Shown here piece by piece: positions 28,285 to 47,673 of a stretch of DNA of 64,000 nucleotides (the stretch's first letter is position 1; the number at the start of each line of letters is the position of its first letter). The translations under genes and the position numbers were made by a program. The stretch spans positions 1,184,001-1,248,000 of the forward strand of contig OZ253470.1 in NCBI GenBank assembly GCA_965261735.1, in the 5' to 3' direction. The DNA is from Alphaproteobacteria bacterium. GTDB lineage: Bacteria; Pseudomonadota; Alphaproteobacteria; SHVV01. The notes beneath the pieces were generated by a model. That model saw only the letters and a list, made by a program, of their open reading frames with translations. It ran no database searches and was not told the origin of the DNA.

Positions 28285-28297
28285 CTGGCGCTCACCG

Positions 28298-29916: not shown

Positions 29917-30261
29917 GATGAGCGGGGCCGCTCCGTCCCGGGGGTTCCAGTAGCTGCTTATCGTCTCGGCGCACCTCGGGCAAGCCAAAAAACGGCTCTC
30001 GCCAACCTCGACCTCAATGCACTGCGGTGAATCCGTTCTCACGGAGCCCGCGCGGACCGAACGCTGGTGTGGCTACGGCGGAGCCGGCGGCGGCATCGAC
30101 CCGCAACCTCGGGCTTAGCTTAGGCGCCGGCTTGACTCAGCCTTTCAGCTACCCAAAGAATGGGAGTTGGGCGGAAGGATGGGCGTAGTCCGAGGGAACG
30201 GGGACGGCATCTCGGTCGATTCCCGGCGCTGCCGCGTGAATTTTGGTAACAAGGAAAGGCC

Positions 30262-32333: not shown

Positions 32334-34625
32334 ATGACTGACCTGAACCCGCCGCGCAGATCGGTCTCGCTGGACGACTTGCTGAAGGCCAACAAGGCGC
32401 AGTTCGACAGTGTCTTCGCGGCCCAGATGAGGGACACGGGCCTGGTGAGCGTGACCCATCGGCCGGCCACGGCAGAGGATCTTGTCTCGGCTAGCCTAGG
32501 GGTCCGGGCGGTCGTCGACGGCGACGATAGTACGGCACTCCTCGACGGGCGGTTTGGCGAGGGTTGGTCATCCGAGGTCGTCGAACACAAGACCGAAGGC
32601 GGCTCGGTCACGGTGCTGTGCAAGCTCGTGGTGGACGGGGTTTCAAAAATGCAGTTCGGTGCGGCACGGATCAACGGCGATCAGGGTGCCGCTCTGCAAA
32701 GGGCGACCGACGAGGCGCTCAAGAAGTGTGCGGCCCTGTTCGGGCCGCGAGAGGGGCTGCCGGAGGCAGAGGCCGGAGGCCCCGCCGCCCGACCGCAAGA
32801 GGCGCCGGCCGCGGGAGCCCAGCCCGATGCCGCCGTGCCCAGCCTCGCCGCCCCCACTAGCCGTGCGCTGGACACGATCACCCTGGATCTCATCGAAAAC
32901 GCGCTGCGCAACGCCCGGCACGAGATGGACGCCGTACTCTTCCGCTCCGCCATGTCACCCGTGATCCGCGAGCAACACGACGAGTTTCCCATGATCACCG
33001 ACCCCAAGGGGCGGATGATCGTCGGCCAGTTCGGCTCCTACGTCGCCGAGATGCTGCGCGAGCAGAACATGCAGGTTGATCCGGGCGACGTCATTCTCAA
33101 TAACGATCCCTTCAAATGCGGCGGCGCCATCAGCCATATCAACGATTGGCTCGTGCTCGTGCCGATCTTTCACGGCAACGAACTTGTCGGCTTCAGCTCC
33201 ATGTTCGGCCACATGATGGACGTCGGCGGCTGGGTGCCCGGCAGCATGCCGACCGCCGCCACGTCGATCTTCGGCGAGGGAATCCGCATCCCGCCGATCA
33301 AGATCTACGCGAAGGGCGAGATCAACAAGGCGGCGCTCGGCATCATCATGAACAACACGCGCACGCCCGAAATGAACTACAGCGACCTCATGGCTATCAT
33401 CGCCGGCTGCCGTGCCGGCGAGAAGCGGGTGATCCAGATCTGCGACCGCTTCGGTAAGGACACCTACATTCAGGCGTGTGAGGCCCTGCTTGAGCGTACC
33501 AACCGCGCGATGCGGCAGCTCATCGTTCAGAACCTGCCCAATGAGCCTCAGTCGTTCGAAGACTACGTAGATGATGACGGCTGCGGCAACGGCCCCTTCA
33601 AGATGAAACTGACCGTGTGGCGCGAGGGCGACGAGGCCTTCTTCGATTGGACGGGGACCTCAGATCAGGCGCCGGGTCCGATCAATTTCTTCCTCAACGA
33701 GGGCATGTTCAAGATGTTCATCGGGGTCTACATGATCATGGTGTTCGACCCCCAGATTCTCTTCAACGACGGATTCTACGACCTCATTCACGTGACCCTA
33801 CCCAAAGGGTCGCTCGTGCACCCGGAGTTCCCGGCAGCGCTGGGCTGCCGCACGCACGCCCTCGCCCGCCAGTTCGACGTCCTCGGCGGCGCGCTGAGTA
33901 AAAACGCGCCGGAAATGGCCACTGCCGCCGGCTATGGCTCAAGCCCTCACTTCCTGTACTCGGGCGTTGACGGCGATGGCCGCCCGTTCCAGCTCATGGA
34001 GATACTGTTTGGCGGGATTCCCGGCCGCCCGGTAGGCGACGGCATGGATGGCCACTCGTGGTGGCCGCTATTCGAGAATATTCCCACCGAATACCTCGAA
34101 ACCTACTATCCGATGATCATCGAAAACTACACCACGCTAGCCGACACCGGCGGCGCTGGGAGGCACCGCGGCGGCAACGGCGTCGAAAAGGTTTACTTGT
34201 TGTTGGAGAACGGCGAGATCTCCATCCACGATGACCGCCATCTCACCCAGCCGTGGGGGATTCTCGGAGGACAACCGGGCGCTTGCTCGGAAAAATGGCT
34301 GGAGAAAGAGGACGGGTCCAGGGAGCCGTTGCCCTCGAAGGTGGACAACGTAAGAGTGCGCGGGGGCGACAGGATCATCTTCCGCACCGCCGGCGGCGGC
34401 GGCTGGGGCGACCCATTGGAACGCGAGCCGGCAAAGGTGCGCGGCGACGTGGTGCGCGGTCTCTTGACCGTGGGCGCCGCCCAGGAACGGTACGGCGTGG
34501 TCATCGGCAGCGTCGGGCTCACCATTGACGACCGGGCGACCCAGGAGTTGCGCGAGAAGCTGAAAGGGAATCGAGGGACCCTCCCGGTGTTCGATTTTGG
34601 TGCGCAGCCATCGGGTCATGCATGA
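32334..34625 (+). CDS. Hydantoinase/oxoprolinase B subunit, copy 1, with ~178-aa N-terminal extension
   Basis: Catalytic part starts at LDTITLDLIENAL; NDPF...SHIND, GHMMDVGG..PGS, AGGGGWGDP; GAGGTG RBS. Confidence 0.93.
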   Translation: MTDLNPPRRSVSLDDLLKANKAQFDSVFAAQMRDTGLVSVTHRPATAEDLVSASLGVRAVVDGDDSTALLDGRFGEGWSSEVVEHKTEGGSVTVLCKLVVDGVSKMQFGAARINGDQGAALQRATDEALKKCAALFGPREGLPEAEAGGPAARPQEAPAAGAQPDAAVPSLAAPTSRALDTITLDLIENALRNARHEMDAVLFRSAMSPVIREQHDEFPMITDPKGRMIVGQFGSYVAEMLREQNMQVDPGDVILNNDPFKCGGAISHINDWLVLVPIFHGNELVGFSSMFGHMMDVGGWVPGSMPTAATSIFGEGIRIPPIKIYAKGEINKAALGIIMNNTRTPEMNYSDLMAIIAGCRAGEKRVIQICDRFGKDTYIQACEALLERTNRAMRQLIVQNLPNEPQSFEDYVDDDGCGNGPFKMKLTVWREGDEAFFDWTGTSDQAPGPINFFLNEGMFKMFIGVYMIMVFDPQILFNDGFYDLIHVTLPKGSLVHPEFPAALGCRTHALARQFDVLGGALSKNAPEMATAAGYGSSPHFLYSGVDGDGRPFQLMEILFGGIPGRPVGDGMDGHSWWPLFENIPTEYLETYYPMIIENYTTLADTGGAGRHRGGNGVEKVYLLLENGEISIHDDRHLTQPWGILGGQPGACSEKWLEKEDGSREPLPSKVDNVRVRGGDRIIFRTAGGGGWGDPLEREPAKVRGDVVRGLLTVGAAQERYGVVIGSVGLTIDDRATQELREKLKGNRGTLPVFDFGAQPSGHA

Positions 34626-34720
34626 GGCCGGCGCAAGGAACCATGCGTTAGACGGATAGGCGGCTACCTATTCCATCCCTGGAGGCAACGCCGACCCATC
34701 GCAACAGCGGGGGCTATACG

Positions 34721-37537
34721 ATGCTCGACATAGCGATCCCAATCCTCATCTTCGCGATCATTGTCATCGCCATCCTGTATGTCGTCTCAATCTGGATTTA
34801 CAAGCGTTCGCCCACCAACATGGCATTCATCCGCACCGGTTTCCTGGGCACCAAGGTATGCCTGGGCCGGGGCGCTCTGGTGTTTCCGGTTTTCCACGAG
34901 GTCACTTGGGTTTCCCTGGAGACGATCAAACTCATCGTAAGCCGCGCCCGTGAGCAGGGCGTTCTCACAGCCGACAAGATCCGCATCGACGTCGGCGCCG
35001 AGCTCTACGCCCATGTCGGCCACACGCCCGAGGCCATTCTCACGGCGAGCCGGAGTTTGGGCGAGAAGACATTCGACGCCGAGAAGGTACGCAACCTGCT
35101 CGAGGCCAAGGTCGTCAGCGCGCTCAGGAGCTACGCGGCGACCAAGACCCTTAGCGAGCTGCACGAAAACCGGGACGCCTTTGCCCGCGAAATCAAAGCT
35201 AGTGTGACGGAGAGCTTTGAGGCCAATGGCCTCACGCTTGAGGAAGTGACGATCGTCACCATGGAGCAAACGCCAAAGGAGTACTTCAAGACCGACAACG
35301 TGTTCGACGCCGAGGGGCTCAAGATCATCACGGAAATCACTTCCGATGCCCGTAGAGAGGTCCACGACACCGAGAAGCGCACGACCGTGTCCATCCGCCA
35401 GAAGGACCTGGACACGCAACTCGAGCTCCTCGAAATCGAACGGCAGGAGGCCGTCGCCCGGGCGGGCCAGGACAAGGCAGTATCCAACGAGCAGGCGCTT
35501 CAGCTCGGCCAAAAGCAGATCTACGTTCTCGACCAGCGCAAAGCCGTCGAGGAAAAGGAGATCGAGAACGAGAAAGCGCTGGAGCGCATGCGGACCGATC
35601 GCGATCTGATCATCACCGAAGAGGCGAAGAAGCGCGAGGCTTCCGAGATCCAAAAAGAGTTGGCACTAGAGCAGGAGCGCAAGGACCGGGAGATTGCGAT
35701 TATCGCCAAGGCGAGGGAAGAAGAGCTGGCCAACATCGCACGCAATCTAGCTCTCGAGCAGGCTGAGAAAGATCGCCAAATCGCCTTGATCGCCAAGGCG
35801 AAGCAGGAGGAATTGGCCGATATCGAGCGAGCGCTGGCACGCGATCGGGCCGCGAAAAACAGCGAAATCGAGCTCATCGCCACGGATCAGGAACGCCAGC
35901 AGACTGAGATTCAGCGTGCCACGGCGGTTATGGCCGAGGAGGAGGCGGCACGCGATCGGCGCCATCAGGCTGGTGAGGAGGCCGCCATATCCATGCGCAG
36001 GCGTAGCCTCCAGACCCGCCTCAGCACGCTTGACCTGGACAAGGACGAGGCGTTCGCCGAAGCCCGCCAGGAGCAAGAGGTGTCCAACGAAAAGGCGCGC
36101 GTACTCAGCGAACAACAGCGCTTCATCCTCGAGCAGCGTTGGCAAGTCGAAGAAGAAGAGATCAACAAGGCGCGGGCGGTCGAGGCCGCCGAAATCCACA
36201 AGGAAGCCGGAATTATCGAAACCATGAAAACACGCGAGGCCGCCGAGGTGCGCCGTGCCCTGGCCCGCGAGCAGGAGGAAAGGGACCGTGAGATCGCGCT
36301 GGTCGCCAAGTCGCAGGAGCTCGAACAGGCGGAAATCCGCCGCAAGTTGGCGGGCGAACAGGAAGATCGCGACCGCCAGCTCGCCCTTGTCGCCAAGGAG
36401 GAAGAGCTGCGACGTGCCGAGGTGAGGCAGGCCCTGGCGGTCGAGCTCGAGGAACGAGCCCGCGAGATCACGCTCATTGGCAAGGAACAGGAGCGCGAAA
36501 TAGCGGATATCGGTCGCTTTCTGGCGCGCGAAAAGGAGGAACGCGACCGCGAGATCGCGTTGGCCGAAAAAACTCGGCAGCTGGAGGAAGCGGAGATCAA
36601 GCGCCTGGAGGCCTCCGCAAAGAGGGAGCGGGCCCAGCACAACGTGGAATCGGTGAGCCTCCTCGCCGACGCCGAGCGCACCAAGAACATCGAACGCGTC
36701 GAAGCCGAAAGGTTGGCTGAAAGCCGTCGGATCGACGAGGAAAATAAGGCCCAGATCAACCGCATGCACATGCTGGCTCAAGCCGAGACGCGGAAGCTGT
36801 CGGCTGAGCAGGAATCCGATGCGACGCTCATCAGAGCTCGCGCTACGAGCGAGGCCCAGAAGATTACCGCCGAGGGGATCGAGAAGGAGGCGGGGGCCAC
36901 AGGCCGGGCCGAAATGGAGATCGAAGCGCTGCGTGCCGCCAACGCCCGGCGCATGCTCGAGGCCGAGGCTTCAGGCCTTGAAGCCAAGGCGGTCGCGCTG
37001 AAGAAGTACAACGAGTCCGGGGCCTTCCTGGAATTGGCAAAGATGCGTATCGAGGCCGAGCGCGACATCCACATCGATCAGGCCAAGGCCATGGGGAGCG
37101 CCCTGCAGGGTGCGCAAATCCGCATGTATGGCGGCGAGAATGGCACCGTCGATACCATTCGCAGCATGTTTACCTCTGGGTTCGCGCTCGGCGAGGTTCT
37201 GGAGGGGGTGGCGCAGTCCTTACCCGAGGGCTTGCGCGGGCGATTCAAGGACAACGGCCTCAGGGGTCTTTTCGGCAAGCCGTACGGGACCAGCGATTTC
37301 AAGCATTCCATCGAGGACTTGAGCAAGCTGGTCCAGAAGAGCTTGCGTACGCGCAAAGACAAGGAGATCCCCTTCGCGGAAGCCGTGACCATTTTGCAGG
37401 AAAAGGCCGGCGGGGATGACGGCCAGGCGAAAGCGGTCGGCCTTCTCAAGGAGATGAACGAACAGGGGCAATTCGACGACCTTTCCTTTGACAAGGTGTG
37501 GGCGCTTATAAGAGCCGCGGCAAAGTCGGCGGACTGA
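34721..37537 (+). CDS. Very long flotillin/YqiK-like SPFH protein (938 aa)
   Basis: N-terminal TM, AFIRTG.LG.KV...PVFHE, LT.DKIRIDV, ALRS.AA...L.ELH..R..F, NGL.LE.V, N.FDAEGL..IT; long E/R/A/K helical region; IRMYGG flotillin C-domain. Confidence 0.9.
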   Translation: MLDIAIPILIFAIIVIAILYVVSIWIYKRSPTNMAFIRTGFLGTKVCLGRGALVFPVFHEVTWVSLETIKLIVSRAREQGVLTADKIRIDVGAELYAHVGHTPEAILTASRSLGEKTFDAEKVRNLLEAKVVSALRSYAATKTLSELHENRDAFAREIKASVTESFEANGLTLEEVTIVTMEQTPKEYFKTDNVFDAEGLKIITEITSDARREVHDTEKRTTVSIRQKDLDTQLELLEIERQEAVARAGQDKAVSNEQALQLGQKQIYVLDQRKAVEEKEIENEKALERMRTDRDLIITEEAKKREASEIQKELALEQERKDREIAIIAKAREEELANIARNLALEQAEKDRQIALIAKAKQEELADIERALARDRAAKNSEIELIATDQERQQTEIQRATAVMAEEEAARDRRHQAGEEAAISMRRRSLQTRLSTLDLDKDEAFAEARQEQEVSNEKARVLSEQQRFILEQRWQVEEEEINKARAVEAAEIHKEAGIIETMKTREAAEVRRALAREQEERDREIALVAKSQELEQAEIRRKLAGEQEDRDRQLALVAKEEELRRAEVRQALAVELEERAREITLIGKEQEREIADIGRFLAREKEERDREIALAEKTRQLEEAEIKRLEASAKRERAQHNVESVSLLADAERTKNIERVEAERLAESRRIDEENKAQINRMHMLAQAETRKLSAEQESDATLIRARATSEAQKITAEGIEKEAGATGRAEMEIEALRAANARRMLEAEASGLEAKAVALKKYNESGAFLELAKMRIEAERDIHIDQAKAMGSALQGAQIRMYGGENGTVDTIRSMFTSGFALGEVLEGVAQSLPEGLRGRFKDNGLRGLFGKPYGTSDFKHSIEDLSKLVQKSLRTRKDKEIPFAEAVTILQEKAGGDDGQAKAVGLLKEMNEQGQFDDLSFDKVWALIRAAAKSAD
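35660..35920 (+). repeat. 29-aa (87-nt) degenerate repeat block 1 in the SPFH protein, 3 units
   Basis: LALEQERKDREIAIIAKAREEELANIARN / LALEQAEKDRQIALIAKAKQEELADIERA / LARDRAAKNSEIELIATDQERQQTEIQRA. Confidence 0.85.
36260..36607 (+). repeat. 29-aa degenerate repeat block 2 in the SPFH protein, 4 units
   Basis: LAREQEERDREIALVAKSQELEQAEIRRK / LAGEQEDRDRQLALVAKEEELRRAEVRQA / LAVELEERAREITLIGKEQEREIADIGRF / LAREKEERDREIALAEKTRQLEEAEIKRL. Confidence 0.88.
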
Positions 37538-37557
37538 GCCGGCGCTCGGGACAGGGC

Positions 37558-38640
37558 ATGACGCAGCACGACGTCGTTCTGAAAGGCGTGGACAAGACCT
37601 TCGTGGGCGACGTTCGTGCCGTGATCGACTTCAATGCCGAGATCGAGCACGGCGAGTTCGTAGCCATGCTCGGGCCGAGCGGCTGCGGCAAGACCACCAT
37701 GCTGCGCCTGATCGGCGGGCTCGAAGAGGTGACCGCGGGACGCATCTACATCTCCGAGCAAGACGTGACGGACCTGCCGCCGTCGCAGCGCGACACCGCG
37801 ATGATGTTTCAGAGCTTCGCGCTCTTCCCGCACCGCACGGTGCTGCAGAATGTTGAGTTCAGTCTCAAGACCAAGGGGCTGCCGAAAGACGAGCGCGCGC
37901 GCCACGTGTGGGAGATGCTCGAATTGGTGAGCCTCGCCGAGCTCGCCAACCGCTATCCCCGTGATCTGAGCGGAGGGCAACAGCAGCGCGTCGCCCTGGG
38001 CAGGGCTTTGATCGCCAGACCGACCGTACTTCTACTCGATGAGCCGCTCGGCTCTCTCGACTACAGCCTGCGCCAAGCCATGATGGTCGAGCTCAAGAAG
38101 ATTCAGCGCGAGCTGGGAATCACCTTCATCATGGTCACCCACTCCCAGCAGGAAGCGTTGTCCATGGCGGACAAGGTGATCGTAATGAGCGATGCCGTGA
38201 TTCAGCAGATCGGCACGTCGCGGGAAATCTACGAGCACCCGCGAACCAAGTTCGTGGCCGAATTCGTCGGCAACAACAACTTGTTCCAGGGGACCGTCCG
38301 ATCGCGCAGCGGTTCCATCGTGTTCGTGGAAACCAATGGCCACTTGTTCTACGTGAGAATCCCCGAGCACATGCGCCAGGTGCCGATCGGCAAGGAAGCG
38401 TACTTCTCGGTGCGAGCCGACCGCATGCACACGGGCGAACAACCGGCCATGGCCAATCGGATCGAAGGCGAGTACGTCACCACCGAATTCATGGGCTCGC
38501 TGGAGACCGACGTTTTCGAGATCGCGCCCAGGATTTTCGTCCACGTCGAGCAGCACCGTAGCGCGTCGGATCGCGACTACAACATGGGGGACCGCGAAAC
38601 CATCTGCTGGGCGGCCGATGCGGGGGTGCTGCTCGACTAG
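37558..38640 (+). CDS. ABC transporter ATP-binding protein (PotA-like)
   Basis: GPSGCGKTT, LSGGQQQRVALGRAL, LLLDEP, VTH; TOBE-like C-terminus. Confidence 0.93.
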   Translation: MTQHDVVLKGVDKTFVGDVRAVIDFNAEIEHGEFVAMLGPSGCGKTTMLRLIGGLEEVTAGRIYISEQDVTDLPPSQRDTAMMFQSFALFPHRTVLQNVEFSLKTKGLPKDERARHVWEMLELVSLAELANRYPRDLSGGQQQRVALGRALIARPTVLLLDEPLGSLDYSLRQAMMVELKKIQRELGITFIMVTHSQQEALSMADKVIVMSDAVIQQIGTSREIYEHPRTKFVAEFVGNNNLFQGTVRSRSGSIVFVETNGHLFYVRIPEHMRQVPIGKEAYFSVRADRMHTGEQPAMANRIEGEYVTTEFMGSLETDVFEIAPRIFVHVEQHRSASDRDYNMGDRETICWAADAGVLLD

Positions 38641-38652
38641 GAACCTCGATCG

Positions 38653-39480
38653 CTATCGCGAGCGGCGATAGAGGATGGTGTAGATCGCGACGAACAGAGC
38701 GATCATGGACAACGAAAAAAGCGTCGAGGCGGTGCCGAGCGCAAACAGCGTCGGCCGGATGCGCTGGGCCGTGGCGGCGTTGATGTCGAGCGGCAGTGTG
38801 TTGTACTGGCCCGAGAGCAGAGTCGTGCGCGCGAACTCGTCGTAGGAAAGCGTAAAGCCAAAGAGAGCAGCCGCCACGATGCCAGGCATAATCAGCGGCA
38901 GCGTCACCTCCCTGAACACGGTCCATTCGCTGGCGCCCATGTCGCGGGCCGCCTCCTCGACACTCTCATCGAAGCGGTTGAAAACCGCCATCATGACCAG
39001 GAACCCGAACGGCAGCGTCCACACCACGTGGACGCCCAAACCCGAGGACCACCACGCCGGTGCAATCGCCACCTGCTTCAGCAGGGTCGCGAGCCCGAGA
39101 CTGAGCAGGATCCCCGGCACCATGAGGCCCGCCAAGATCGTGTAGAACAAGAGGCCCGAGCCTGGGAACGGTTTGCGAAATGCCATCGCCAACATGGTGG
39201 AGAACAGGGCGGTGACGACCATCACGATCAGCGCCAGAATCAACGAGCGCAGCAACGCCCCCTGCATGTCGCCGACCACCGAGGGCTCAATCAGCTTGTT
39301 CCACCAGTACAGGCTGACGCCGCGCATGGGAAAGCTCACGCCCCCTCGGCGCCCCTGGAACGAAAGGATGAACATGGCGATCATCGGCCCATAGATGAAG
39401 AGGAGGAACAGGATGTAGTAGGCGCTGAAACCGGTCTTGATCCAGGCCTTCTTTCTCCTTTCCGGGGTCGAGCGAGCCAC
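38653..39480 (-). CDS. ABC transporter permease (PotC-like)
   Basis: EEAARDMGA loop, FTLSYDEF; multiple TM segments. Confidence 0.92.
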   Translation of the reverse strand: MARSTPERRKKAWIKTGFSAYYILFLLFIYGPMIAMFILSFQGRRGGVSFPMRGVSLYWWNKLIEPSVVGDMQGALLRSLILALIVMVVTALFSTMLAMAFRKPFPGSGLLFYTILAGLMVPGILLSLGLATLLKQVAIAPAWWSSGLGVHVVWTLPFGFLVMMAVFNRFDESVEEAARDMGASEWTVFREVTLPLIMPGIVAAALFGFTLSYDEFARTTLLSGQYNTLPLDINAATAQRIRPTLFALGTASTLFSLSMIALFVAIYTILYRRSR

Positions 39481-39481
39481 C

Positions 39482-40462: not shown

Positions 40463-40494
40463 ACCAGTCAAGATTCAAAAGGCACGGAAGGACT

Positions 40495-40529
40495 AGGACC
40501 GGGCAAACCGGTGGGATTTGCCCGGTCCT
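40495..40529. other. 13-bp perfect hairpin between the SBP and permease genes (probable mRNA-stabilising or attenuating element)
   Basis: AGGACCGGGCAAA-N9-TTTGCCCGGTCCT. Confidence 0.6.
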
Positions 40530-40640
40530 TGGGGAGACGGCAGATCCCTGGGGACGCCACCGGTTCTCTAGGCGGGCGCGGCCGAAGCCGCCCGCACCCG
40601 CCACGACTACCGGGCCATCGGTCCGGCAACAAACATCGGA

Positions 40641-41945
40641 TCAGGCCGCCAGAAACTCCGTCCAGCGCTTTACCAGATAATCGTTCTCGTCCATCAACGA
40701 GTTCCACACGGCGATATTGCTGAAGCGGTCCTGGTAGGAGCCGCCATCGCGGATTTCTCCCTTGGGCACAATGACGGTCCCGAACGGATCGGACAGTTCT
40801 TTGGCGGCGGGTTTCCCGTCGTACCAGTAATCCCACTCCTCGGGTTCCAAGTTCTTCCTCACTGGATCCAGCACCGACATGTAGTACGCCTGACGGGCCA
40901 CAAAGGCGCCCGGCCAGCCGCTCAGCCACCAGTTGATGTATTCGTATGCCGCGTCGAGCTTCGCACCCGTGGCCTTGGCGGAAATGGCCAAGCCGCCATG
41001 CCAGCCGCGCATGCCTTCTTTCGGCGAGGCGTAGATGCATTTTACGCCCTCCGCCTTGATGGCCGTCACCGCCGGAGACCACATGCTTTCAAGAGCCACC
41101 TCGCCGCTCACCATCAGGTTGACCGATTGGCCGAAGCTCTCCCAGAATGCCCGGAAGTGACCCTCCTTTTTCTTCTTGATCAGGAAATCGGCCATGAAAT
41201 CGATCTCCTCCTTGGTCATGTTGCCCTTGTCGCCAAATGTGCGCAGGCCCAGCGCCTCGATCCCCATGGCCGCGTCCATGACACCGATCTGGGGTACGTT
41301 CAAGAGCGCTACGCGACCCTTGAAATCCGGGCTGAACAACTCGGCCCAGGATTCGATTTTCCGCCCGGTCTCATCGGGGTTGTAGCCAATCGAATCCGCG
41401 TTGTGCCAGGCCGGGACCATGGATACGTAACGCGACGGTCCCTGCACCCGATTACCGTCCTCGTCGAGCCAAAGGTGGCGGAACGGGGCGTCGCCCTGCC
41501 CGAGGTTCGAGCTGGGGGTCAGCTTACCGGTCTTTGACAGGTTGGTGACGTTGTCCCACTCCTTGATCCGCCGTGTGTCAATGGGCTGCCACACCTTGGC
41601 TGGAATCATAAAGTCCATATCGTTGTAGTAGCCCTCGGCCACATCATACTGGTCGTTCTGGTTCAGCAATTTGGCCACAAAGGGGCCGTAAACCAGCGCC
41701 TGGCCGCGAACGGCGAAGCCAAGATCCTTCGAGGCTTGGCTCTGGATCTCATTGATGATGCTGACGGCGAGGCCAACGGTGCGTACCGTTTCAGCCCCTT
41801 GGGCGATATGCGGGAAACCGCTGACGAGCGCCCCTGCCGCAACCGCGGTGGCAGTGGTGCCGATAAACTCGCGACGACTTACGCCCTTTTTGGGGGCGCG
41901 CTTCTTTCGATGAGTCTGGCCTGATTTCGCTTTATGCTCGGCCAT
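40641..41945 (-). CDS. ABC transporter substrate-binding protein (PotD/PotF-like), Tat-exported
   Basis: SRREFIG twin-arginine signal; SWAELF...KGRVAL, PKEG..GW, AAYEYINWWL; GGAGG RBS. Confidence 0.9.
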   Translation of the reverse strand: MAEHKAKSGQTHRKKRAPKKGVSRREFIGTTATAVAAGALVSGFPHIAQGAETVRTVGLAVSIINEIQSQASKDLGFAVRGQALVYGPFVAKLLNQNDQYDVAEGYYNDMDFMIPAKVWQPIDTRRIKEWDNVTNLSKTGKLTPSSNLGQGDAPFRHLWLDEDGNRVQGPSRYVSMVPAWHNADSIGYNPDETGRKIESWAELFSPDFKGRVALLNVPQIGVMDAAMGIEALGLRTFGDKGNMTKEEIDFMADFLIKKKKEGHFRAFWESFGQSVNLMVSGEVALESMWSPAVTAIKAEGVKCIYASPKEGMRGWHGGLAISAKATGAKLDAAYEYINWWLSGWPGAFVARQAYYMSVLDPVRKNLEPEEWDYWYDGKPAAKELSDPFGTVIVPKGEIRDGGSYQDRFSNIAVWNSLMDENDYLVKRWTEFLAA

Positions 41946-42160
41946 CGATTCTCTCCTCCCGTTGACAACGTGGGTTCCTGTAGAGACGCCCGTTGAAGCT
42001 TGAATAAATCCTAGGGAAGCCGCCTCCAAGAGTCCATCCAAACATCATCGCCGGCGCCAGCAGCGCAGCCGTCAAAGCCTTTGCCTCGCCGCGATAGCCG
42101 CGCGCATACTGGCCGCCGGTCGAGCGCTAGATCGAGGCCGAGACTGCCCGGGAGGATGTC

Positions 42161-43627
42161 GTGACCGTATTGATCAAGAACGGCCGTATTGTGACCGCCG
42201 TCGATGACTACCACGCCGATATTTTTGTCAACGGCTCCACGGTTACCGTGATCGGGAAGAACCTGAACATCGAAGCGGATCGGGTGATCGACGCCTCGGG
42301 GAAGCTCGTCATTCCCGGCGGGGTCGACCCGCACACCCATCTCGACCTACCGTTCGGCGGAACCACGACCTCCGACGACTTCGAGACCGGGACGCGCGCC
42401 GCGGCCTTTGGCGGAACCACGTGCCTCGTGGATTTCGCCGTGCAGTTGAAGGGTACCTCGACGCTGGAGGCGCTCGAGAAATGGCACGAGAAGGCCGCCG
42501 GCAAGACCGCCATCGATTATGGCTTTCACATGATCATCACCGACATGCCGACCCATCGTACGCCAGAAATGAGGCGTCTCGCGGACGAGGGAATCACTAG
42601 CTACAAGCTGTTCATGGCCTATCCCGGTGCCATGCTGTCCGACGACGGCACCATCTTCCGCACGATGCGCAAGGCCGGTGAGGACGGAACCCTCGTGTGC
42701 ATGCACGCCGAGAATGGAATCGTCATCGACGAGCTCGTCAAGATCGCTCTCGCCGAAGGCCACATCGAACCCAAATATCACGCCTTGACCCGGCCGACCC
42801 GTCTCGAGGCCGAGGGAACGCACCGGGCGCTCGCCATCGCCGAGGTCGCGCGCTCGCCCGTCTACATCGTGCACATGAGTTGCCACGATTCGCTCCATGA
42901 GCTTCGCCAAGCCCAGGCCCGCGGGGTCATGGCCCACGGCGAGACCTGCCCGCAATACCTCCTGCTCGACGTCGGCGCCTATGACGAGCCGGGATTCGAC
43001 GGTGCCAAGTACGTGCTGACCCCGCCGCTGCGAGAAAAGTGGAACCAGGACGAACTATGGCGGGGTCTGCGCGGCAACGCCCTCAACGTCATTTCGACCG
43101 ACCATTGTCCGTTCTGCCTACGCGAGCAGAAGGAGCTCGGGCGCGACGATTTCAGCAAGATCCCGAATGGCGGCCCGGGCATCGAAAACCGGATGAGCCT
43201 CATCTATCACCATGGCGTCGGAGCCGGCCGCATCGGCCTCAATCGCTTCGTCGAGCTCACCTCGACCGCCCCGGCCAAGATCTTCGGCCTCTTCCCGAAG
43301 AAGGGAACACTGGCCGTCGGCAGCGACGCCGATATCGTGATCTTCGATCCCGACCGCGAGGAGACGATCAGCTATTACAATGCGGCCACCCACCACATGA
43401 ACATCGATTACAGCGCCTACGAGGGCTTTAAGGTCAAGGGCTACACGGAGACCGTGCTGAGCCGCGGCAAGGTCATCATCGACAAAGGCGAGTATTTGGG
43501 TCGACCGGGAGACGGCATGTTCGTCAAGCGAGGGCCCTACGGCGGCATGTACGCCGCCGCACCGGGTATGGGTGCGCCGCCGGCCGACTCGCGGTGGGAC
43601 ACCAGCGGGCCATCGCGCGCCGCCTGA
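42161..43627 (+). CDS. hydA: Dihydropyrimidinase / D-hydantoinase
   Basis: PGGVDPHTH, GGTT..DF, SYKLFMAY, MHAENG, YIVH, GETCPQYL, TDHCPF, IPNGGPG.E.R; GGAGG RBS. Confidence 0.93.
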   Translation: MTVLIKNGRIVTAVDDYHADIFVNGSTVTVIGKNLNIEADRVIDASGKLVIPGGVDPHTHLDLPFGGTTTSDDFETGTRAAAFGGTTCLVDFAVQLKGTSTLEALEKWHEKAAGKTAIDYGFHMIITDMPTHRTPEMRRLADEGITSYKLFMAYPGAMLSDDGTIFRTMRKAGEDGTLVCMHAENGIVIDELVKIALAEGHIEPKYHALTRPTRLEAEGTHRALAIAEVARSPVYIVHMSCHDSLHELRQAQARGVMAHGETCPQYLLLDVGAYDEPGFDGAKYVLTPPLREKWNQDELWRGLRGNALNVISTDHCPFCLREQKELGRDDFSKIPNGGPGIENRMSLIYHHGVGAGRIGLNRFVELTSTAPAKIFGLFPKKGTLAVGSDADIVIFDPDREETISYYNAATHHMNIDYSAYEGFKVKGYTETVLSRGKVIIDKGEYLGRPGDGMFVKRGPYGGMYAAAPGMGAPPADSRWDTSGPSRAA

Positions 43628-43636
43628 GCGGCGGGC

Positions 43637-44104
43637 TCAGGGTTGCTGCGTGGCGGGACGGATGATCTTAAGCAGCCAAAAAATGATGCAAAACACGCCG
43701 GTCAGGATCACCAGCGCGGCGACGGCGCCAAGGCGCTCGCCGAACCCCGCATCGAGGGCGTACTCCTGCCGCAGAAGATGGACGCAGAGGATTTGAACCG
43801 CCTGCAGTGTCGCGCCGCCACTCAGTAGGATCGCGACGAAGGTGGAGCCCCGTAGCGAACTCAGCACCATGGATTCGATGCTGCGCTGCTGCACGATGTG
43901 GACGCGGTAGGCGTGCCAGTGATAGGTACAAAACCCGATGATGCCGATGATCAACGCGACCCAGAAGATCGCATTCTCGAACCTTATTCCATAGACGACC
44001 AGCTTGAACAAGTCCTCAAAGGGCTCGTAAAAATAGAGAAACATCAAGACAACAATGAAAAGCAGGAAGCCCACGAGCGTCCAAAACCATTGCCACCCAG
44101 TCAT
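43637..44104 (-). CDS. Hypothetical 4-TM membrane protein (paralog of 29389-29916)
   Basis: Shared FLYFYxPFED, FxNxIFW, GGATLQAV, DAGFG. Confidence 0.82.
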   Translation of the reverse strand: MTGWQWFWTLVGFLLFIVVLMFLYFYEPFEDLFKLVVYGIRFENAIFWVALIIGIIGFCTYHWHAYRVHIVQQRSIESMVLSSLRGSTFVAILLSGGATLQAVQILCVHLLRQEYALDAGFGERLGAVAALVILTGVFCIIFWLLKIIRPATQQP

Positions 44105-44253
44105 TGGCCCACCAGCTCGTGGTTCTTCAGGGTAGGGTACGGGTCAAAGGGCAATAAAAGCTCCCACAGCCTTATATCCGATTGCTCTCGCCGAGGGCAA
44201 GCCCCGCCTCGACGACTCTCAGGCTCTATTCGCGCGCGCCCGGCGGGGTCCAC

Positions 44254-45315
44254 TCACGCGGCCGTTTCCGCAGCCGCGACAATAAGAAGGACACCGTAGA
44301 GAACCAGAAATACGGCGTCCTTAACCGCCGGAACGAGCTGTTTTTCCGCCCGATTGACGGCGATTAGGGCGATGGCCTCAAGAACAAAAAAGACTCCCGA
44401 CAAGAAGAAGAACGGCCATATGCTGCGCCACCAGGACAGCTCTTCCGCTTGGGGCACCTCTTGTACCCATCTCGATATCAGCAATAAGAGGGGCAACACC
44501 ATCAAGTAGCCGTACGCCACAAGGAAGCGAAACCGCGTGAGCTTCCGGTCCAGTATCCAGAACGTAAAGAAGAAAAGAACGACGTGGAGAAAATCCCAAA
44601 AGAGCGACGCATATTGATCGCTCTCGGTGACCTGCAACAGGTTGAGGAACCCAAGTAGAAGCAGAAAGACGATGCCGTCGCAGAATAGCCATTCGCGCAC
44701 CGTCTCGCCGGCGCTCTTCATGCTCCAGGCGCGGGTCGCCTTGTCGAACAGCAGCACCACGCCGACCGCCACGCTGGCCGGATAGATTAGATGGAGCATC
44801 AGCGCGTACTGCTGCGCCCTCGGGACGTAGATCCAGTTGAGCAGCAGGAAGGCGAGCCCCAGGGCCAGTAGTCCCAAGAGGCGCGCTCCGGCAGGAGTCT
44901 CGAATTCCGACGGCGTGGCCGGGGTTTCGCCGTCTGCCGCCGCTACCGCTCGCGGCTGCCGAGGCAGGCGGGCGAAAAGAAAGACAACGAAGGCCGCGAG
45001 CCCGACCGCGCCGACGACCGACATTGCAACGATGAAGACGACCGATCGCCGGCCCGTCCGCCAATCCGTTGCCGCCAGCTGCTCTTGCACGCCCGGAAGG
45101 AACTGCCAGAGCGCCAGCAGGACGACGACCAGGAGCAGGATCGCCGCCAATAGGAGCTCGTACCATTGTGGCGTGTATCCGCCGACCGGTCTGCCGGCCT
45201 CCGGCTGCTGTGATCGGCCTAGGTAACGAGTAACGAGGAAAACGAGGAAGGCCGCGACGGCAACCGCCGCGATGGCGATCATGACCTCGAGGAAGGCAAC
45301 CGATCTGCTATCCAC
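44254..45315 (-). CDS. Hypothetical polytopic membrane protein (~10 TM)
   Basis: Repeated hydrophobic helices; internal duplication near the N-terminus; co-oriented behind hyuB copy 2. Confidence 0.8.
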   Translation of the reverse strand: MDSRSVAFLEVMIAIAAVAVAAFLVFLVTRYLGRSQQPEAGRPVGGYTPQWYELLLAAILLLVVVLLALWQFLPGVQEQLAATDWRTGRRSVVFIVAMSVVGAVGLAAFVVFLFARLPRQPRAVAAADGETPATPSEFETPAGARLLGLLALGLAFLLLNWIYVPRAQQYALMLHLIYPASVAVGVVLLFDKATRAWSMKSAGETVREWLFCDGIVFLLLLGFLNLLQVTESDQYASLFWDFLHVVLFFFTFWILDRKLTRFRFLVAYGYLMVLPLLLLISRWVQEVPQAEELSWWRSIWPFFFLSGVFFVLEAIALIAVNRAEKQLVPAVKDAVFLVLYGVLLIVAAAETAA

Positions 45316-45432
45316 CTTGTACCCGGGGGCTCATGTGAACGCGGCCCTGCGATCCCACGATTGCGGCGGCGCGGCGCAGCCGCACGGTCCGCCGAAAACA
45401 GCCGGCGACACGTGCCAGCGCCCGCATGCGCG

Positions 45433-47673
45433 CTAGCGAGACCGCAATCGCTGGGTCTCCTCCGAATTCAGGGTGTCAGCGACCGGATCGATGGCGACTC
45501 CGTAAACATCTCGGGCGATCTCTATTGTTATGTAGTCGTCCAGATAATCGCCCAGCACCATCGCCGGATCACGCGCTTTAGGATCGCCGTAGCCACCGCC
45601 GGAGGGCGCCGTGATTTGGATCAGATCGCCAGCTTCCATCTTATATCCGGTGACCTTGGAGGGCCAGTTCTGCTCTTCTGCCGTGCCCGGGTTCTTAACG
45701 AGCTTGCCCGTGTGGCCTTCCGTCCCACCGAAGACGCCGTGCGGCTTTTCCAGGTGGCGGTCCGCCTCACACGAGATGTAACCCGGTGCGAGGAACCGGT
45801 TCTCGCGCACGATGCCGATGCCGCCGCGCCACTGGCCGGCGGCCGGAGGATCGGGCCGCAACTCGTAGCGCTCGTTGCGGATCGGATAGTGCATGTCGAG
45901 CTCTTCGACCGGATTGTTGCGCGTGTTGGCCATAAGGTTGTCGACGCTGTCCATGCCGTCCTTGCCGTGTCGGCCGCCGTAACTCCCCTCGTCGACCTCC
46001 AGATAAACCCAGTATTGCTGTTTCTCGGGAATGAACCCGCTGTAGGAGATGAAATAGAGCGACGCGGAATTGCCCCCGGTCGCCCTTTCCGGGATGACCG
46101 GCGACAGCGCGTGAATGACGCAGTCCAGCACCCTCTGAATCTGGGCGAAGCGTGAAAAGCAGGCGCGCGGAAAGTTTGGATTGAAGATCGTGCCCTTGGG
46201 GGCAATGACGTTGACCGGGCGGAAGATGCCCTCGTTTTGCGGGATGAACTCCTCGAAGGTCACTTCGTCCAGCATTAGGGTACGAACGATGTAGTTGCAA
46301 GCGACCACGAGACTGCCCTCGAAGGGCACGTTGAAGCCGGTCTCCACCTCGGCCGCCGACCCGGTGAGGTCGATGGTGATGTCGCTGCCCTTGACACGCA
46401 CGGTGACGTTGACCTTCAGCGGCGTATCGCGGTTTTTCCCGTCGTCATCCAGCCAGCCCTCGGAGTGGTACTCACCGTCGGGAACCTTTTCGATCTCGGC
46501 GCGCAGCATTCTTTCCGAGTAGTCCATCCAATAGTTTGCCGTGCCCATGACGGTGTCCGCGCCGTATTTCCCGACGAGCCGCAGAAAACGCTCGCGTCCG
46601 ATTTCCACCGCCGCGATCATCGCCTCGATATCCGAGGTATCCATGTCGGGGGTGCGCACGTTGTCCTTGAGGAGTTGCCAGACCTCCTCGTTACGGGTTC
46701 CGCGGTCGTACAACTTGATGGCGTTGAAGAGCTTGGACTCGGCGTAGACGTCGACCACGTCGACATTGATGCCGGGGGCGGCGCCGCCCATGTCGAGCAG
46801 GTGCGCGGTGCAGGCGGAGAACCCCAATAGCCCGCCGTCATGAACGATGGGCACGATCACGGCCACGTCGGGCGTATGCGAGGCGCCGTAATAGGGGTGG
46901 TTGTGGATGATGACGTCGCCCTCGTGGATGTTGCCGGCCAACCGTTTCAGGATGCCTCTGATGTACCAGGGAAGAGAACCGATGTGCATCGGCGTGCTCT
47001 CGCTCTCGCAGAGCTCATTCCCTTCCATGTCGAAAATGCCGCAACCCAGGTCCTCCGACTCGCGAATGATGCTCGAGTAGGACATTCGGTAAAGGACGTG
47101 GGCCATCTCCTTGGCGATGGCGTTGAAGGCGCCGCCCACCACGCGAAGCGTGACTGGGTCGAGGTCCTGATATGAAAAGTCGGTAATCTTCGATGGCGCC
47201 GGACGGCCAGTCAGCGCCACCGCGGTCGAAACTGGCTCGGAGTCGGCCTGTCGCAACGCTGGCAGCTGGGGCGCGGGCGCCGGCCGCAGAGCCTCCGCCG
47301 CCGGTTCCGTTGCCTCGGGCGGGGAGGCTACCGGAGCGTCCGTTGTGGCCGGTAGCCCCGGTCGCGGCCGGACCGTGTCCGGCGGCGCGGCGCCCCGCCC
47401 GGTATCGACGAGCGTCATTGCGCACTGGAGGAGGCTGTCGTCGGAGGCGACCTCGAGCTGCTCGCCCAGCGACAGACCACCGCGCCCGTTGGCCGTTCCC
47501 GATTTTCGCACCTGGGCGCCGTCCGCCCGCAGCTCGCCTTCCACTTCCACGCCGTCGCCACGCAGGTGGTGGTTGATAATGTCGAAACTCCAACCGTCGC
47601 CGTAGGCGTCGCGGAGTGCCTTGACGACGGCGGGGACGGTTGTTGGTCCCGTCGTACTTGGCGCGTCATTCAT
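45433..47673 (-). CDS. Hydantoinase/oxoprolinase B subunit, copy 2, with ~165-aa N-terminal extension
   Basis: Catalytic part from LDPVTLRVVGGA; SSIIRESED, NHPY.G.SH.PD, AHLLDMGG, GGGYGDP. Confidence 0.93.
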   Translation of the reverse strand: MNDAPSTTGPTTVPAVVKALRDAYGDGWSFDIINHHLRGDGVEVEGELRADGAQVRKSGTANGRGGLSLGEQLEVASDDSLLQCAMTLVDTGRGAAPPDTVRPRPGLPATTDAPVASPPEATEPAAEALRPAPAPQLPALRQADSEPVSTAVALTGRPAPSKITDFSYQDLDPVTLRVVGGAFNAIAKEMAHVLYRMSYSSIIRESEDLGCGIFDMEGNELCESESTPMHIGSLPWYIRGILKRLAGNIHEGDVIIHNHPYYGASHTPDVAVIVPIVHDGGLLGFSACTAHLLDMGGAAPGINVDVVDVYAESKLFNAIKLYDRGTRNEEVWQLLKDNVRTPDMDTSDIEAMIAAVEIGRERFLRLVGKYGADTVMGTANYWMDYSERMLRAEIEKVPDGEYHSEGWLDDDGKNRDTPLKVNVTVRVKGSDITIDLTGSAAEVETGFNVPFEGSLVVACNYIVRTLMLDEVTFEEFIPQNEGIFRPVNVIAPKGTIFNPNFPRACFSRFAQIQRVLDCVIHALSPVIPERATGGNSASLYFISYSGFIPEKQQYWVYLEVDEGSYGGRHGKDGMDSVDNLMANTRNNPVEELDMHYPIRNERYELRPDPPAAGQWRGGIGIVRENRFLAPGYISCEADRHLEKPHGVFGGTEGHTGKLVKNPGTAEEQNWPSKVTGYKMEAGDLIQITAPSGGGYGDPKARDPAMVLGDYLDDYITIEIARDVYGVAIDPVADTLNSEETQRLRSR

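Follow-up and report, generated by a model that had tools for sequence, protein, structure and literature searches.

Rad52-type annealases (Rad52_Rad22, PF04098) include RAD52, yeast Rad52 and the bacterial and phage Rad52-like single-strand annealing proteins (SSAPs), together with Mgm101 and Sak. In the papers cited here, the fold figures as a device for annealing nucleic acids. In the excerpted text of PMC9870868, elements i and ii of the Rad52 SSAP fold are a three-stranded antiparallel sheet and the helix α3 that crosses it, and α3 and the sheet determine the curvature of the multimer. The excerpted text of PMC13110880 describes a subunit interface of Mgm101 and RAD52 that involves nearly the whole monomer except for the β1-β2 hairpins and the C-lobes, in which the upper β3-β5 sheet packs on the start of α3. 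DNA is contacted in RAD52 by R55, V63 and Y65 of the hairpin and by K152, R153 and R156 of α3, and the DNA groove is walled by the hairpin and C-lobe motifs (PMC13110880). The β-hairpin motif is essential for annealing, according to the excerpted text of PMC11783212.

The window analysed here, a stretch of 64,000 nucleotides of alphaproteobacterial DNA, holds three copies of a small Rad52-like module. The module is N-terminal on two hydantoinase B subunits (HyuB-1 and HyuB-2) and forms a standalone protein, SA. The genes form part of a cluster for cyclic-amide catabolism that is conserved among alphaproteobacteria. We lean towards the reading that the Rad52 core has been co-opted as a self-associating tether on HyuB-1, HyuB-2 and the free SA.

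Rad52-like cores of HyuB-1, HyuB-2 and SA

HyuB-1 (32334-34625, +; 763 aa) is composed of an N-terminal helix (helix a), a Rad52-like core, a Pro/Ala-rich linker and a Hydantoinase_B domain. The last of these accounts for residues 180-694 (PF02538, E 1e-149) and leaves over an N-terminal extension. Helix a (residues 13-35; 32370-32438, +) is amphipathic and conserved, with a hydrophobic moment of 0.62 and with L16, L17, D25 and other residues nearly invariant among 62 orthologues; AF2 models residues 13-35 as a helix at a pLDDT of about 75. The core (residues 64-137; 32523-32744, +), modelled at a pLDDT of about 90, consists of a helix, three antiparallel strands and a long helix. The linker (residues 138-179; 32745-32870, +), delimited by composition, has 42 residues with 19% P and 31% A. 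A script detected both anchor motifs in 38 proteins 700-800 aa long, and the HyuB-1-type linkers of these measure 31-47 aa, with a median of 39. A search with the extension gave 158 matches at E ≤ 0.01 among 1545 candidates, and the extension is kept at 58-72% identity in at least 119 further HyuB proteins of about 750-780 aa. Thus, it is translated and under selection. None of the 120 HyuB homologues among the matches listed carries a PF04098 annotation.

HyuB-2 (45433-47673, −; 746 aa) has its PF02538 domain at residues 172-698 (E 2.2e-157), its core at residues 13-88 (47410-47637, −) and, again from composition, a linker at residues 89-171 (47161-47409, −) of 83 aa with 19% P and 19% A. Helix a is absent from this protein. 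The core matches that of HyuB-1 in BLASTP (E 1e-11) and is one row of an alignment of 26 cores. The two N-terminal extensions share 34% identity over 117 columns (BLASTP, E 1e-11) and the whole proteins 31% over 735 columns, in line with the initial annotation, which had called the two quite divergent. The open reading frames, coordinates and residues that it quoted for both domains are exact, the resemblance that it noticed goes well past chance, and Pro/Ala-rich linkers do follow both, as it had stated.

The third copy, SA (25325-25849, −; 175 aa), has no Pfam match. Its AF2 model (pLDDT 76.8) shows a helix resembling helix a (residues 11-28), a disordered spacer, the core (71-120), an extra β-hairpin (130-141) and a last helix (155-174). 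A further helix a (residues 12-37) is fused to a Redoxin/peroxiredoxin domain (24826-25323, −), the 3′ end of which is cut by an IS copy (23780-24849); an intact form of 202 aa occurs elsewhere (P0274). With a 30-aa helix a query against the genome itself, only HyuB-1 and the peroxiredoxin fusion matched, and a search of small proteins in general for helix a turned up this fusion as its one candidate. Helix a is thus weakly founded as a general tag.

The HyuB-1 core, the HyuB-2 core and SA are homologous to Rad52-family annealases, for all three types on account of a profile search and hhalign. With 22.2 bits for its 86-aa core, HyuB-1 lies marginally above the Pfam gathering cut-off of PF04098 (20.3 bits); residues 1-189 score 20.3 bits and the full-length protein 16.8 bits. 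The N-terminus of HyuB-2 has no Pfam match on its own, and PF04098 is matched at E ≤ 1 by 6 of the 26 cores. Comparison of the 26-core alignment with five true alphaproteobacterial Rad52 proteins in hhalign gave a probability of 75% and an E-value of 2.5e-5 over 75 columns, in a register that agrees at the FGxxW motif and at the last helix. The 26-core profile retrieves bona fide PF04098 annealases at E-values of 1e-13 to 1e-18, and 1273 cluster representatives, true annealases counted in, at E ≤ 1e-3 (258 at E ≤ 1e-10). Its best 150 matches include some 26 proteins, roughly 175-320 aa long, that carry the hairpin segment at the N-terminus and the C-terminal motif of the annealase type, and nine of ten picked matches reach PF04098 at 28.7-65.5 bits. 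The kinship to Rad52 proposed in the initial annotation is borne out by these comparisons and by the fold searches below. Against PDB sequences, the isolated N-termini gave nothing relevant (best E 0.37 and 0.69) and the 26-core profile no Rad52, its best match being an RFC subunit (E 0.2). The Rad52 link emerged only from profile-profile, large-library and fold searches. By its ESM Atlas features, SA is a neighbour of Sak and of a cluster in which 11% of the members have PF04098. A complete PF04098 gene, distinct from these three, lies elsewhere in the genome (107 bits).

Foldseek returned RAD52 as the top match for the HyuB-1 core (E 1.6e-4), as the initial annotation had anticipated, and for SA (E 1.2e-3). 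Structural comparisons of the HyuB-1 core gave a Z score of 9.4 with RAD52 (r.m.s.d. of 2.6 over 79 residues), 9.0 with Mgm101 and 8.7 with yeast Rad52, the next fold being the dsRBD at 7.6. The four top Z scores of SA are 9.8, 9.6, 9.5 and 9.0, including those of RAD52 (9.8) and yeast Rad52 (9.5, r.m.s.d. of 1.9 over 76 residues), and the next fold scores 7.4. The three-stranded antiparallel sheet crossed by helix α3 is present in the AF2 models, with Z scores about 2 above the next fold. Identity as a dsRBD, the alternative named in the initial annotation, was rejected, since dsRBDs stay at a Z of 7.6 or below where Rad52-family members reach 9.4-9.8, and since the sequence profile retrieves Rad52 proteins; we read the likeness to dsRBDs as a consequence of a shared simple topology.

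A domain tree of 158 rows and 74 columns (quick search, unrooted and silent on the order of events; based on rows with at most 8 gaps and without the class 'other') shows four nearly coherent classes, with 6 changes against a minimum of 3. A branch with 95% SH-aLRT separates 83 SA rows and one HyuB-1 row from the remaining HyuB-1, HyuB-2 and annealase-type rows.

Annealase elements of the core and predicted self-association

The core keeps only the helix, the three-strand sheet and the second helix; the β1-β2 hairpin and the C-lobe are gone. Upstream of the core, the AF2 models of the HyuB-1 N-terminus and of SA contain only helices and disorder, with no strands, and the extra hairpin of SA (130-141) follows the sheet and does not lie at the hairpin position of the Rad52 family. 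The hairpin segment and the C-terminal motif are present in all the annealase-type matches listed and absent from the HyuB-1, HyuB-2 and SA types. Basic residues were counted in 85 SA-type, 32 HyuB-1-type, 15 HyuB-2-type and 26 annealase-type rows of a classification of 176 rows. The K152 equivalent is basic in 9/32 HyuB-1-type, 10/15 HyuB-2-type and 8/85 SA-type cores vs. 26/26 of the annealase type, and the R153 equivalent in 27/32, 11/15 and 49/85, respectively, vs. 26/26. The R156 equivalent is seldom basic even among the annealase-type rows (2/26). The median net charges of the cores are −3, −2 and −1 for the HyuB-1, HyuB-2 and SA types vs. −2.5 for the annealase type; net charge was dropped as an argument because it does not tell annealase-type from cluster-type cores. 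The missing DNA-binding hairpin and C-lobe strengthen a reading without DNA, and we infer that the module has lost DNA binding. As the R153 equivalent is mostly basic, some nucleic-acid affinity is possible.

Prediction with four copies of HyuB-1 residues 1-149 gave ipSAE values of 0.64, 0.61 and 0.45 (median 0.61), against 0.00 for the best of three controls. In a calibration from which the HyuB-1 job differs by its four copies and its own alignment, 20 of 30 solved pairs and 1 of 23 single chains attain the ipSAE mark. The runs have at least 35% of contacts in common, with a partner pLDDT of 60-62. The predicted interface is asymmetric and head-to-tail, with residues 83-110 and 131-137 of one copy facing residues 67-87 and 116-125 of the next. 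It lies wholly within the core, and helix a takes no part. These models, limited to four copies, suggest that the module self-associates; the pass may also reflect the model's memory of solved RAD52 and Mgm101 rings.

The cyclic-amide catabolic cluster

Both HyuB proteins span positions 1-519 of the 519-position PF02538 model, and a HyuA gene lies directly upstream of each: HyuA-1 (30262-32325, +) with Hydantoinase_A, Hydant_A_N and Hydant_A_C domains, and HyuA-2 (47686-49764, −) with the Pfam HyuA domains. Both pairs have the full family domains and, among NCBIfam models, come closest to caprolactamase alpha and beta, at 240-570 bits vs. a cut-off of 1000; the 240 bits of HyuB-1 against caprolactamase beta are likewise under the cut-off of that model. 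HyuB-1 is followed by the gene of a flotillin-like SPFH protein of 938 aa (34721-37537, +; PF01145, 60.3 bits at residues 45-190), in which an N-terminal hydrophobic, TM-like stretch and a long, repeat-rich, charged, coiled-coil-like region were recognized by eye. An ABC importer (37498-42041, mixed strands) comprises an ATPase (37498-38640, +), a binding protein (40641-42041, −) and two permeases (38653-39480 and 39482-40471, −). The second permease is named from its position, its conservation across the loci and a weak tblastn cross-match to the first, and the ORF overlapping it (39381-40604) has no Pfam match. A D-hydantoinase/dihydropyrimidinase (42161-43627, +) scores 599.8 bits against TIGR02033 (cut-off 393).

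Downstream of HyuB-2 lie two conserved proteins of membrane character (by eye) with no Pfam match, a polytopic one of 353 aa (44254-45315, −) and one of 155 aa (43637-44104, −). The latter is a paralogue of a 217-aa membrane protein (29389-30042, −) that is divergent from HyuA-1. Directly upstream of SA is an isochorismatase-family hydrolase (25861-26619, −; PF00857, 132.9 bits; supported by synteny), the stop of which lies 12 nt before the SA start, and a second isochorismatase-family hydrolase (49819-50505, −; Pfam) lies upstream of HyuA-2. Together with the D-hydantoinase, these two amidases of the isochorismatase type point to a cyclic ureide or imide as the candidate substrate of the pathway. 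A polysaccharide-deacetylase-family protein, a conserved 109-aa ORF and a CobW-family GTPase occupy 26812-29392 (+). Scans of the cluster genes with Pfam and NCBIfam found no recombination, nuclease or phage gene, and Pfam scans of the cluster ORFs no shell or encapsulin gene.

A related-locus search with a single protein gave nine loci, all from alphaproteobacterial MAGs. The flotillin-like gene follows HyuB-1 in 12/12 other genomes examined. Of 401 genomes in the class, 18 have close orthologues of it, with 57-80% identity among the segments listed, and 17 of these are also among the 18 of 401 that have the domain; the genomes bearing the cluster are related, so these co-occurrence counts overstate independence. 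The module, N-terminal on both HyuB proteins here, is C-terminal on the HyuB-2 of genome G188 (residues 640-720 of 737) and in the metagenomic proteins P0152 and P0243. The HyuB-1 of G188 has no module, and a free SA gene is retained on the same contig, where it immediately follows a homologue of the 217-aa membrane protein. SA was not seen in the examined stretches of 5/12 other genomes (in G320 and G261 the stretch ends at the expected SA site), so the set of modules may vary.

Possible roles of the module and comparison with known systems

With the DNA-gripping parts lost and the ring-packing parts kept, the module probably serves in clustering catabolic enzymes and not in DNA handling. In this reading, SA and the N-terminal domains of the two HyuB proteins descend from a Rad52-family single-strand annealing protein; the β1-β2 hairpin and C-lobe of its DNA groove are lost and the subunit-packing core is retained. 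Carried on Pro/Ala linkers of 40-80 residues, the cores could join head to tail, and the resulting arcs, rings or filaments might combine HyuB-1, HyuB-2 and SA. In this way, the two HyuAB enzymes of the pathway, both of the ATP-dependent lactamase type, would be gathered into a single assembly, adjoining a dedicated flotillin-like membrane scaffold and the ABC importer. We infer the mixed assembly, as well as any link to the flotillin-like protein. The initial annotation had suggested an oligomerization or scaffold role; a four-copy model that passes its controls, the presence of the module on three cluster proteins and its varying position speak for that suggestion, which stands as a role predicted from models and gene context. 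A fuller picture, in which the core without a DNA groove is a protein-only ring or filament scaffold that mixes SA with HyuB in a flotillin-associated, membrane-proximal metabolon for cyclic-amide catabolism, with helix a as a possible second client tag (e.g. on the peroxiredoxin), is tentative, and we would sooner doubt than assume it.

The constant place of the flotillin-like gene after HyuB-1 (12/12), its co-occurrence with the domain (17/18 genomes), the conserved membrane proteins in each HyuAB operon and the SA gene right after the 217-aa membrane protein homologue in G188 could also point to docking, in which either the flotillin-like protein or a cluster membrane protein is bound by the core or by helix a, so that HyuAB is tethered to the membrane near the ABC importer, homo-oligomerization not being the point; helix a alone on the peroxiredoxin resembles an address tag. 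However, the flotillin gene still follows HyuB-1 in G188, where that protein lacks the module, and HyuB-2 lacks helix a. We consider docking rather unlikely. It is compatible with a self-associating tether and the two are not exclusive. An intramolecular role, with the module folded onto HyuA or HyuB as a lid, a regulator or a substitute for a third subunit, is very unlikely. The related acetone and acetophenone carboxylases are described, in excerpted accounts, as having additional small subunits, and the domain is kept with its enzyme at 58-72% identity, but the Pro/Ala linkers are long and differ in length, with 31-47 aa among HyuB-1 types and 83 aa in HyuB-2, suggesting a tether over a fixed dock, and the module is found at either end or as a separate protein.

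That the module still binds ssDNA or RNA, either coupling the level or location of the enzyme to RNA or acting as a moonlighting annealase, appears quite unlikely. Homology to annealases, a fold that is also dsRBD-like (Z about 7), a basic R153 equivalent in 27 of 32 HyuB-1-type cores and the precedent of RDM1, in which a small Rad52-like motif sits in another architecture (excerpted text of PMC11783212), would agree with it. However, the β1-β2 hairpin with the equivalents of R55, V63 and Y65 is absent together with the C-lobe, the K152 equivalent is degenerate, the core is net acidic, and the cluster genes scanned include no recombination, nuclease or phage gene. A functionless relic of an old gene fusion is scarcely credible, because the module sequence is conserved across many families of the class and is kept on three proteins, with a large standalone family (85 of 176 classified rows).

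A branch of the Rad52 fold is thus placed here in a purely catabolic, membrane-linked cluster. This branch is widespread but unannotated, and has lost exactly the DNA-holding parts while retaining the subunit-packing parts. If the fuller picture of a membrane-proximal metabolon holds, it would provide the first Rad52-fold assembly without a nucleic-acid role and a new bacterial way of organizing enzymes. Assembly of enzymes by the module would be a natural case of an oligomerizing fold reused as a scaffold, would tie bacterial flotillins to defined clients, an open question in the flotillin field, and would yield a ring-forming tag, small and portable, with which enzymes could be clustered. 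For annotation, a Pfam Rad52 match on these proteins should not imply a recombination function. Literature searches, with subscription journals outside their reach, found nothing joining 'hydantoinase' with 'Rad52' or 'flotillin' with 'hydantoinase', and nothing on Rad52 with oxoprolinase, caprolactamase or acetone carboxylase among the matches listed.

The best fold matches of the module are the Rad52_Rad22 annealases, with which it shares a helix, FGxxW, an antiparallel sheet of three strands, a conserved Gly and a crossing helix that closes with D-A-L-basic-x-A. The head-to-tail meeting of the sheet with the start of the crossing helix, predicted here, would also match the packing of Mgm101 and RAD52 as described in the excerpted PMC13110880. 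In contrast to these annealases, the module has neither the β1-β2 hairpin nor the C-lobe, its K152 equivalent is degenerate, and it measures 75-105 residues vs. about 150-200. Moreover, it is joined to a catabolic enzyme by a Pro/Ala linker or encoded on its own within a catabolic cluster, and its surroundings lack recombination partners. RDM1 is similar, by description only, in that a small Rad52-like motif is built into another arrangement of domains (excerpted PMC11783212). However, RDM1 is a eukaryotic protein that binds nucleic acids and has an RRM besides the motif, whereas the partner here is a hydantoinase B domain or none. Among the HyuAB-type hydantoinase, oxoprolinase and caprolactamase enzymes, both pairs of the window have full domains and fall far below the equivalog cut-offs. 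Enzymes are clustered elsewhere by microcompartment encapsulation peptides, encapsulin cargo tags and dockerin-cohesin pairs. By analogy, the module may be likened to such tags in being small, borne on a flexible linker, present on several enzymes of one pathway and independent of position. It differs from them in being a Rad52 core, and the scaffold candidate nearby is a flotillin-like membrane protein.

N-terminal domains of the two HyuB proteins

The two hydantoinase gene pairs lie on opposite strands, HyuA-1 (30262-32325) and HyuB-1 (32334-34625) on the plus strand and HyuA-2 (47686-49764) and HyuB-2 (45433-47673) on the minus strand. The Hydantoinase_B domain (Pfam) covers residues 180-694 of HyuB-1 (E 1e-149) and 172-698 of HyuB-2 (E 2.2e-157); thus, both HyuB proteins have ~170-180 additional N-terminal residues. 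The coordinates and residues quoted for the two extensions in the initial annotation are exact, and the Pro/Ala-rich linker that it described between the small and the catalytic domains is present; it spans 42 residues of HyuB-1 and 83 of HyuB-2. Aligned over 117 columns, the extensions share 34% identity (E 1e-11), and the whole proteins are co-linear with 31% identity. Residues 1-145 of HyuB-1 match 158 proteins at E ≤ 0.01. Among the matches listed, the extension is kept at 58-72% identity in 119 relatives of ~750-780 aa, none of which carries a precomputed Rad52 annotation. The HyuB-1 extension is real and no annotation artefact.

The N-terminal domain of HyuB is Rad52-like. This relationship, proposed initially from the sequence, is borne out by the PF04098 (Rad52_Rad22) score, fold searches, hhalign and a profile search with A3, an alignment of 26 Rad52-like cores taken from the window and from 12 further genomes. 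The isolated HyuB-1 N terminus scores 20.3 bits, which equals the PF04098 cut-off of 20.3 bits, and the 86-residue core scores 22.2 bits. The score falls to 16.8 in full-length HyuB-1, so that the domain stays unannotated. PF04098 is matched at E ≤ 1 by only 6/26 A3 cores, the Rad52-like domains of HyuB-2 and of the free-standing protein SA have no Pfam match, and Rad52 did not turn up when PDB sequences were searched by sequence or by profile.

The AlphaFold model of HyuB-1 residues 1-149, built with 62 aligned orthologues, shows a core (pLDDT ~90) of a helix (64-74), three strands (78-88, 91-100 and 103-112) and a second helix (117-136). The suggested Foldseek check of this domain placed human RAD52 at the top (E 1.6e-4), ahead of Mgm101 and yeast Rad52, and dsRBDs followed from ~3e-3. 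Exhaustive alignment against 48,161 chains gave Z 9.4 for RAD52 (rmsd 2.6 over 79 residues), 9.0 for Mgm101 and 8.7 for yeast Rad52, and 7.6 for the next fold, the dsRBD. Comparison of A3 with five true alphaproteobacterial PF04098 proteins by hhalign gave a probability of 75% (E 2.5e-5, 75 columns), with FGxxW and the final helix in register. Against 1.84 billion cluster representatives, the A3 profile has 1273 matches at E ≤ 1e-3, of which 258 reach E ≤ 1e-10. The best 150 include proteins of ~175-320 aa with the hairpin segment and C-terminal motif of the annealase type (E 1e-13 to 1e-18), and PF04098 was confirmed by Pfam in 9/10 of those picked (28.7-65.5 bits). The tenth, P0239, lacks a PF04098 match and joins the same core to an NTF2-like Cds6_C domain (67.3 bits). 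One A3 match, P0177, aligns with residues 42-154 of human RAD52 (E 3.6e-4). In P0228, a SWIM zinc finger precedes a full PF04098 domain.

Further copies of the module and the conserved gene cluster

Comparison of the HyuB-1 N terminus with its own genome showed two additional places, both within the window. SA, a free-standing protein of 175 aa (25325-25849, minus strand), starts 12 nt beyond the stop codon of an isochorismatase-family gene. The SA model has a helix (11-28), a disordered spacer, the core (71-120), an added beta-hairpin (130-141) and a last helix (155-174). The fold matches RAD52 (Z 9.8 and 9.6), yeast Rad52 (Z 9.5, rmsd 1.9 over 76 residues) and Mgm101 (Z 9.0), with the next fold after the Rad52 family at Z 7.4; in Foldseek, RAD52 takes all of the first seven places, from E 1.2e-3. 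By protein-language-model features, SA falls next to unnamed clusters, followed by a cluster in which 11% of members have PF04098 and by a Sak cluster. SA-type proteins form the biggest class among the best A3 matches (85/176 classified rows). The other place (24826-25323, minus strand) encodes a Redoxin domain (87.7 bits) with only helix a, the conserved helix of HyuB-1 residues 13-35, at its N terminus. The 3' end of this peroxiredoxin gene is replaced by an IS copy (23780-24849), and the intact form of 202 aa is P0274 of the protein collection. No helix-a fusions other than the peroxiredoxin were found.

Identical 1070-nt IS copies are located at 652-1721, 23780-24849 and 56927-57996, with partial copies at 51027-51527 and 53602-53826. 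They carry IS1595-type transposase domains, and in inverted orientation (pairs I2, I3, I5 and I6) they bracket the catabolic cluster, which may be part of a composite-transposon-like or island segment. In its first third, the window is IS-rich (direct and inverted repeat pairs D3-D5, I1 and I4), with direct and inverted repeats of ~1-1.2 kb and 99-100% identity (12665-15621 vs. 17764-21334, 2282-3453 vs. 19944-21115). Two adjacent ORFs at 21282-22641(-), of 399 and 92 aa, resemble by eye a UmuC/DinB-type polymerase and a UmuD/LexA-type peptidase fragment, respectively.

When the window proteins were compared by tblastn with sequence stretches of 12 other genomes in the class, one conserved cluster emerged. 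In order, it comprises SA, an isochorismatase-type hydrolase, a deacetylase-family protein, a 109-aa ORF, a CobW GTPase, a 217-aa membrane protein, HyuA-1, HyuB-1, a flotillin-like protein of ~810-970 aa, an ABC ATPase, two permeases, a binding protein, a D-hydantoinase (TIGR02033, 599.8 bits), a 155-aa membrane paralogue, a polytopic 353-aa membrane protein, HyuB-2, HyuA-2 and a second isochorismatase-type hydrolase. SA is present in 7/12 of the other genomes' stretches; two of the five in which it is unseen (G320 and G261) stop at its expected site. The 109-aa ORF (27955-28284(+)), which has no Pfam family, occupies the gap between the deacetylase-family and CobW genes at 51-61% identity in 11/11 loci covering the spot. 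The paralogous small membrane proteins (29389-30042(-) and 43637-44104(-)) each adjoin one HyuAB operon; these two and the polytopic protein (44254-45315(-)) are all conserved within the cluster across genomes and have no Pfam family.

The flotillin-like gene (PF01145), with a hydrophobic N terminus and a long repeat-rich charged region by eye, follows HyuB-1 in 12/12 other genomes. Close orthologues (57-80% identity over the listed segments) occur in 18/401 genomes sampled from the class, whose ordinary flotillins are 29-42% identical to it. The Rad52-like core also occurs in 18/401, with 17 genomes in both sets; the two exceptions are G325 (a weak domain match) and G081 (a 79%-complete genome). 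Since these are related genomes and neighbouring genes, this co-occurrence reflects linkage rather than independent replication.

In one genome, G188, the core of HyuB-2 is C-terminal (residues 640-720 of 737; L055 6505-8715(+)), as in the metagenomic proteins P0152 and P0243. HyuB-1 of G188 has no Rad52-like core at all, and its contig carries a short SA-type gene, lacking the hairpin insertion, directly after the homologue of the 217-aa membrane protein. This arrangement (L055 and L074/L054) is a natural permutation of the module, the position of which is fluid. Fusion in the window and separation in G188 is a pattern typical of parts that function together. Within the class, true PF04098 genes are uncommon (7/301 genomes, counting the unpublished G240). 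A complete Rad52_Rad22 gene lies outside the window in the same genome (C1:902825-903247(+), L006; 107.1 bits, 307-aa open frame); therefore, the domains of the cluster are not the cell's annealase.

DNA-binding and subunit-packing parts of the Rad52 fold

The superfamily is described as having a three-stranded sheet that helix alpha3 crosses, two more helices and a beta-hairpin (PMC9870868, PMC11783212). The sheet and alpha3 are reported there to set the multimer curvature (PMC9870868), motifs of the hairpin and sheet are called essential for annealing (PMC11783212), and DNA is gripped by the hairpin (RAD52 R55, V63 and Y65) and alpha3 (K152, R153 and R156) (PMC13110880, Mgm101 paper). According to the same paper, the subunit interface of Mgm101/RAD52 involves almost the whole monomer apart from the beta1-beta2 hairpins and C-lobes. 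The HyuB and SA domains retain the helix, sheet and alpha3 but not the hairpin segment, and the C-terminal motif is missing as well; every listed annealase-type relative has both the hairpin segment and this motif. With the register taken from hhalign and the P0177/RAD52 alignment, the K152 equivalent is basic in 9/32 HyuB-1-type, 10/15 HyuB-2-type, 8/85 SA-type and 26/26 annealase-type proteins, the R153 equivalent in 27/32, 11/15, 49/85 and 26/26, and the R156 equivalent in 0/31, 2/15, 16/83 and 2/26, respectively. The absent segments and these counts therefore indicate that the DNA-groove parts are lost or decaying and the subunit-packing parts kept, suggesting a loss of DNA binding. A rival explanation, residual nucleic-acid binding, would draw on the basic residues that persist; net charge does not separate the four classes.

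Prediction of four copies of HyuB-1 1-149 with an alignment gave ipSAE values of 0.64, 0.61 and 0.45 (median 0.61), compared with 0.00 for the best of three controls. The ipSAE mark is reached by 20/30 solved pairs and 1/23 single chains, in a calibration set-up from which the four-copy run with its own alignment departs. The runs have at least 35% of contacts in common, with partner pLDDT of 60-62. The predicted interface is head to tail and entirely inside the core, with residues 83-110 (sheet, chiefly the third strand) and 131-137 facing the neighbour's 67-87 and 116-125 (where the long helix begins). Such a geometry could extend to rings or filaments. The result may also reflect model memory of the solved RAD52 and Mgm101 rings.

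The best-supported reading is that the Rad52 core was co-opted as a self-associating module on a flexible tether. The assembly would unite both HyuAB enzymes and SA, and would probably lie close to the importer and the flotillin-like scaffold. Docking of the domain to another partner, or an intramolecular role, would compete with self-association of the cores, which is predicted from the models. That the domain is a relic is unlikely, as the module sequence is conserved.

A literature search found no paper joining a hydantoinase with Rad52 or with a flotillin. The predicted HyuB-1 interface echoes the published packing of the sheet on the start of alpha3 in Mgm101 and RAD52. The text of the large structural survey of the superfamily describes proteins with the Rad52 fold as annealases and names a single variant architecture, RDM1 (PMC11783212). 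Thus the fold and the family are known, and what is new is the architecture and the non-recombination context.
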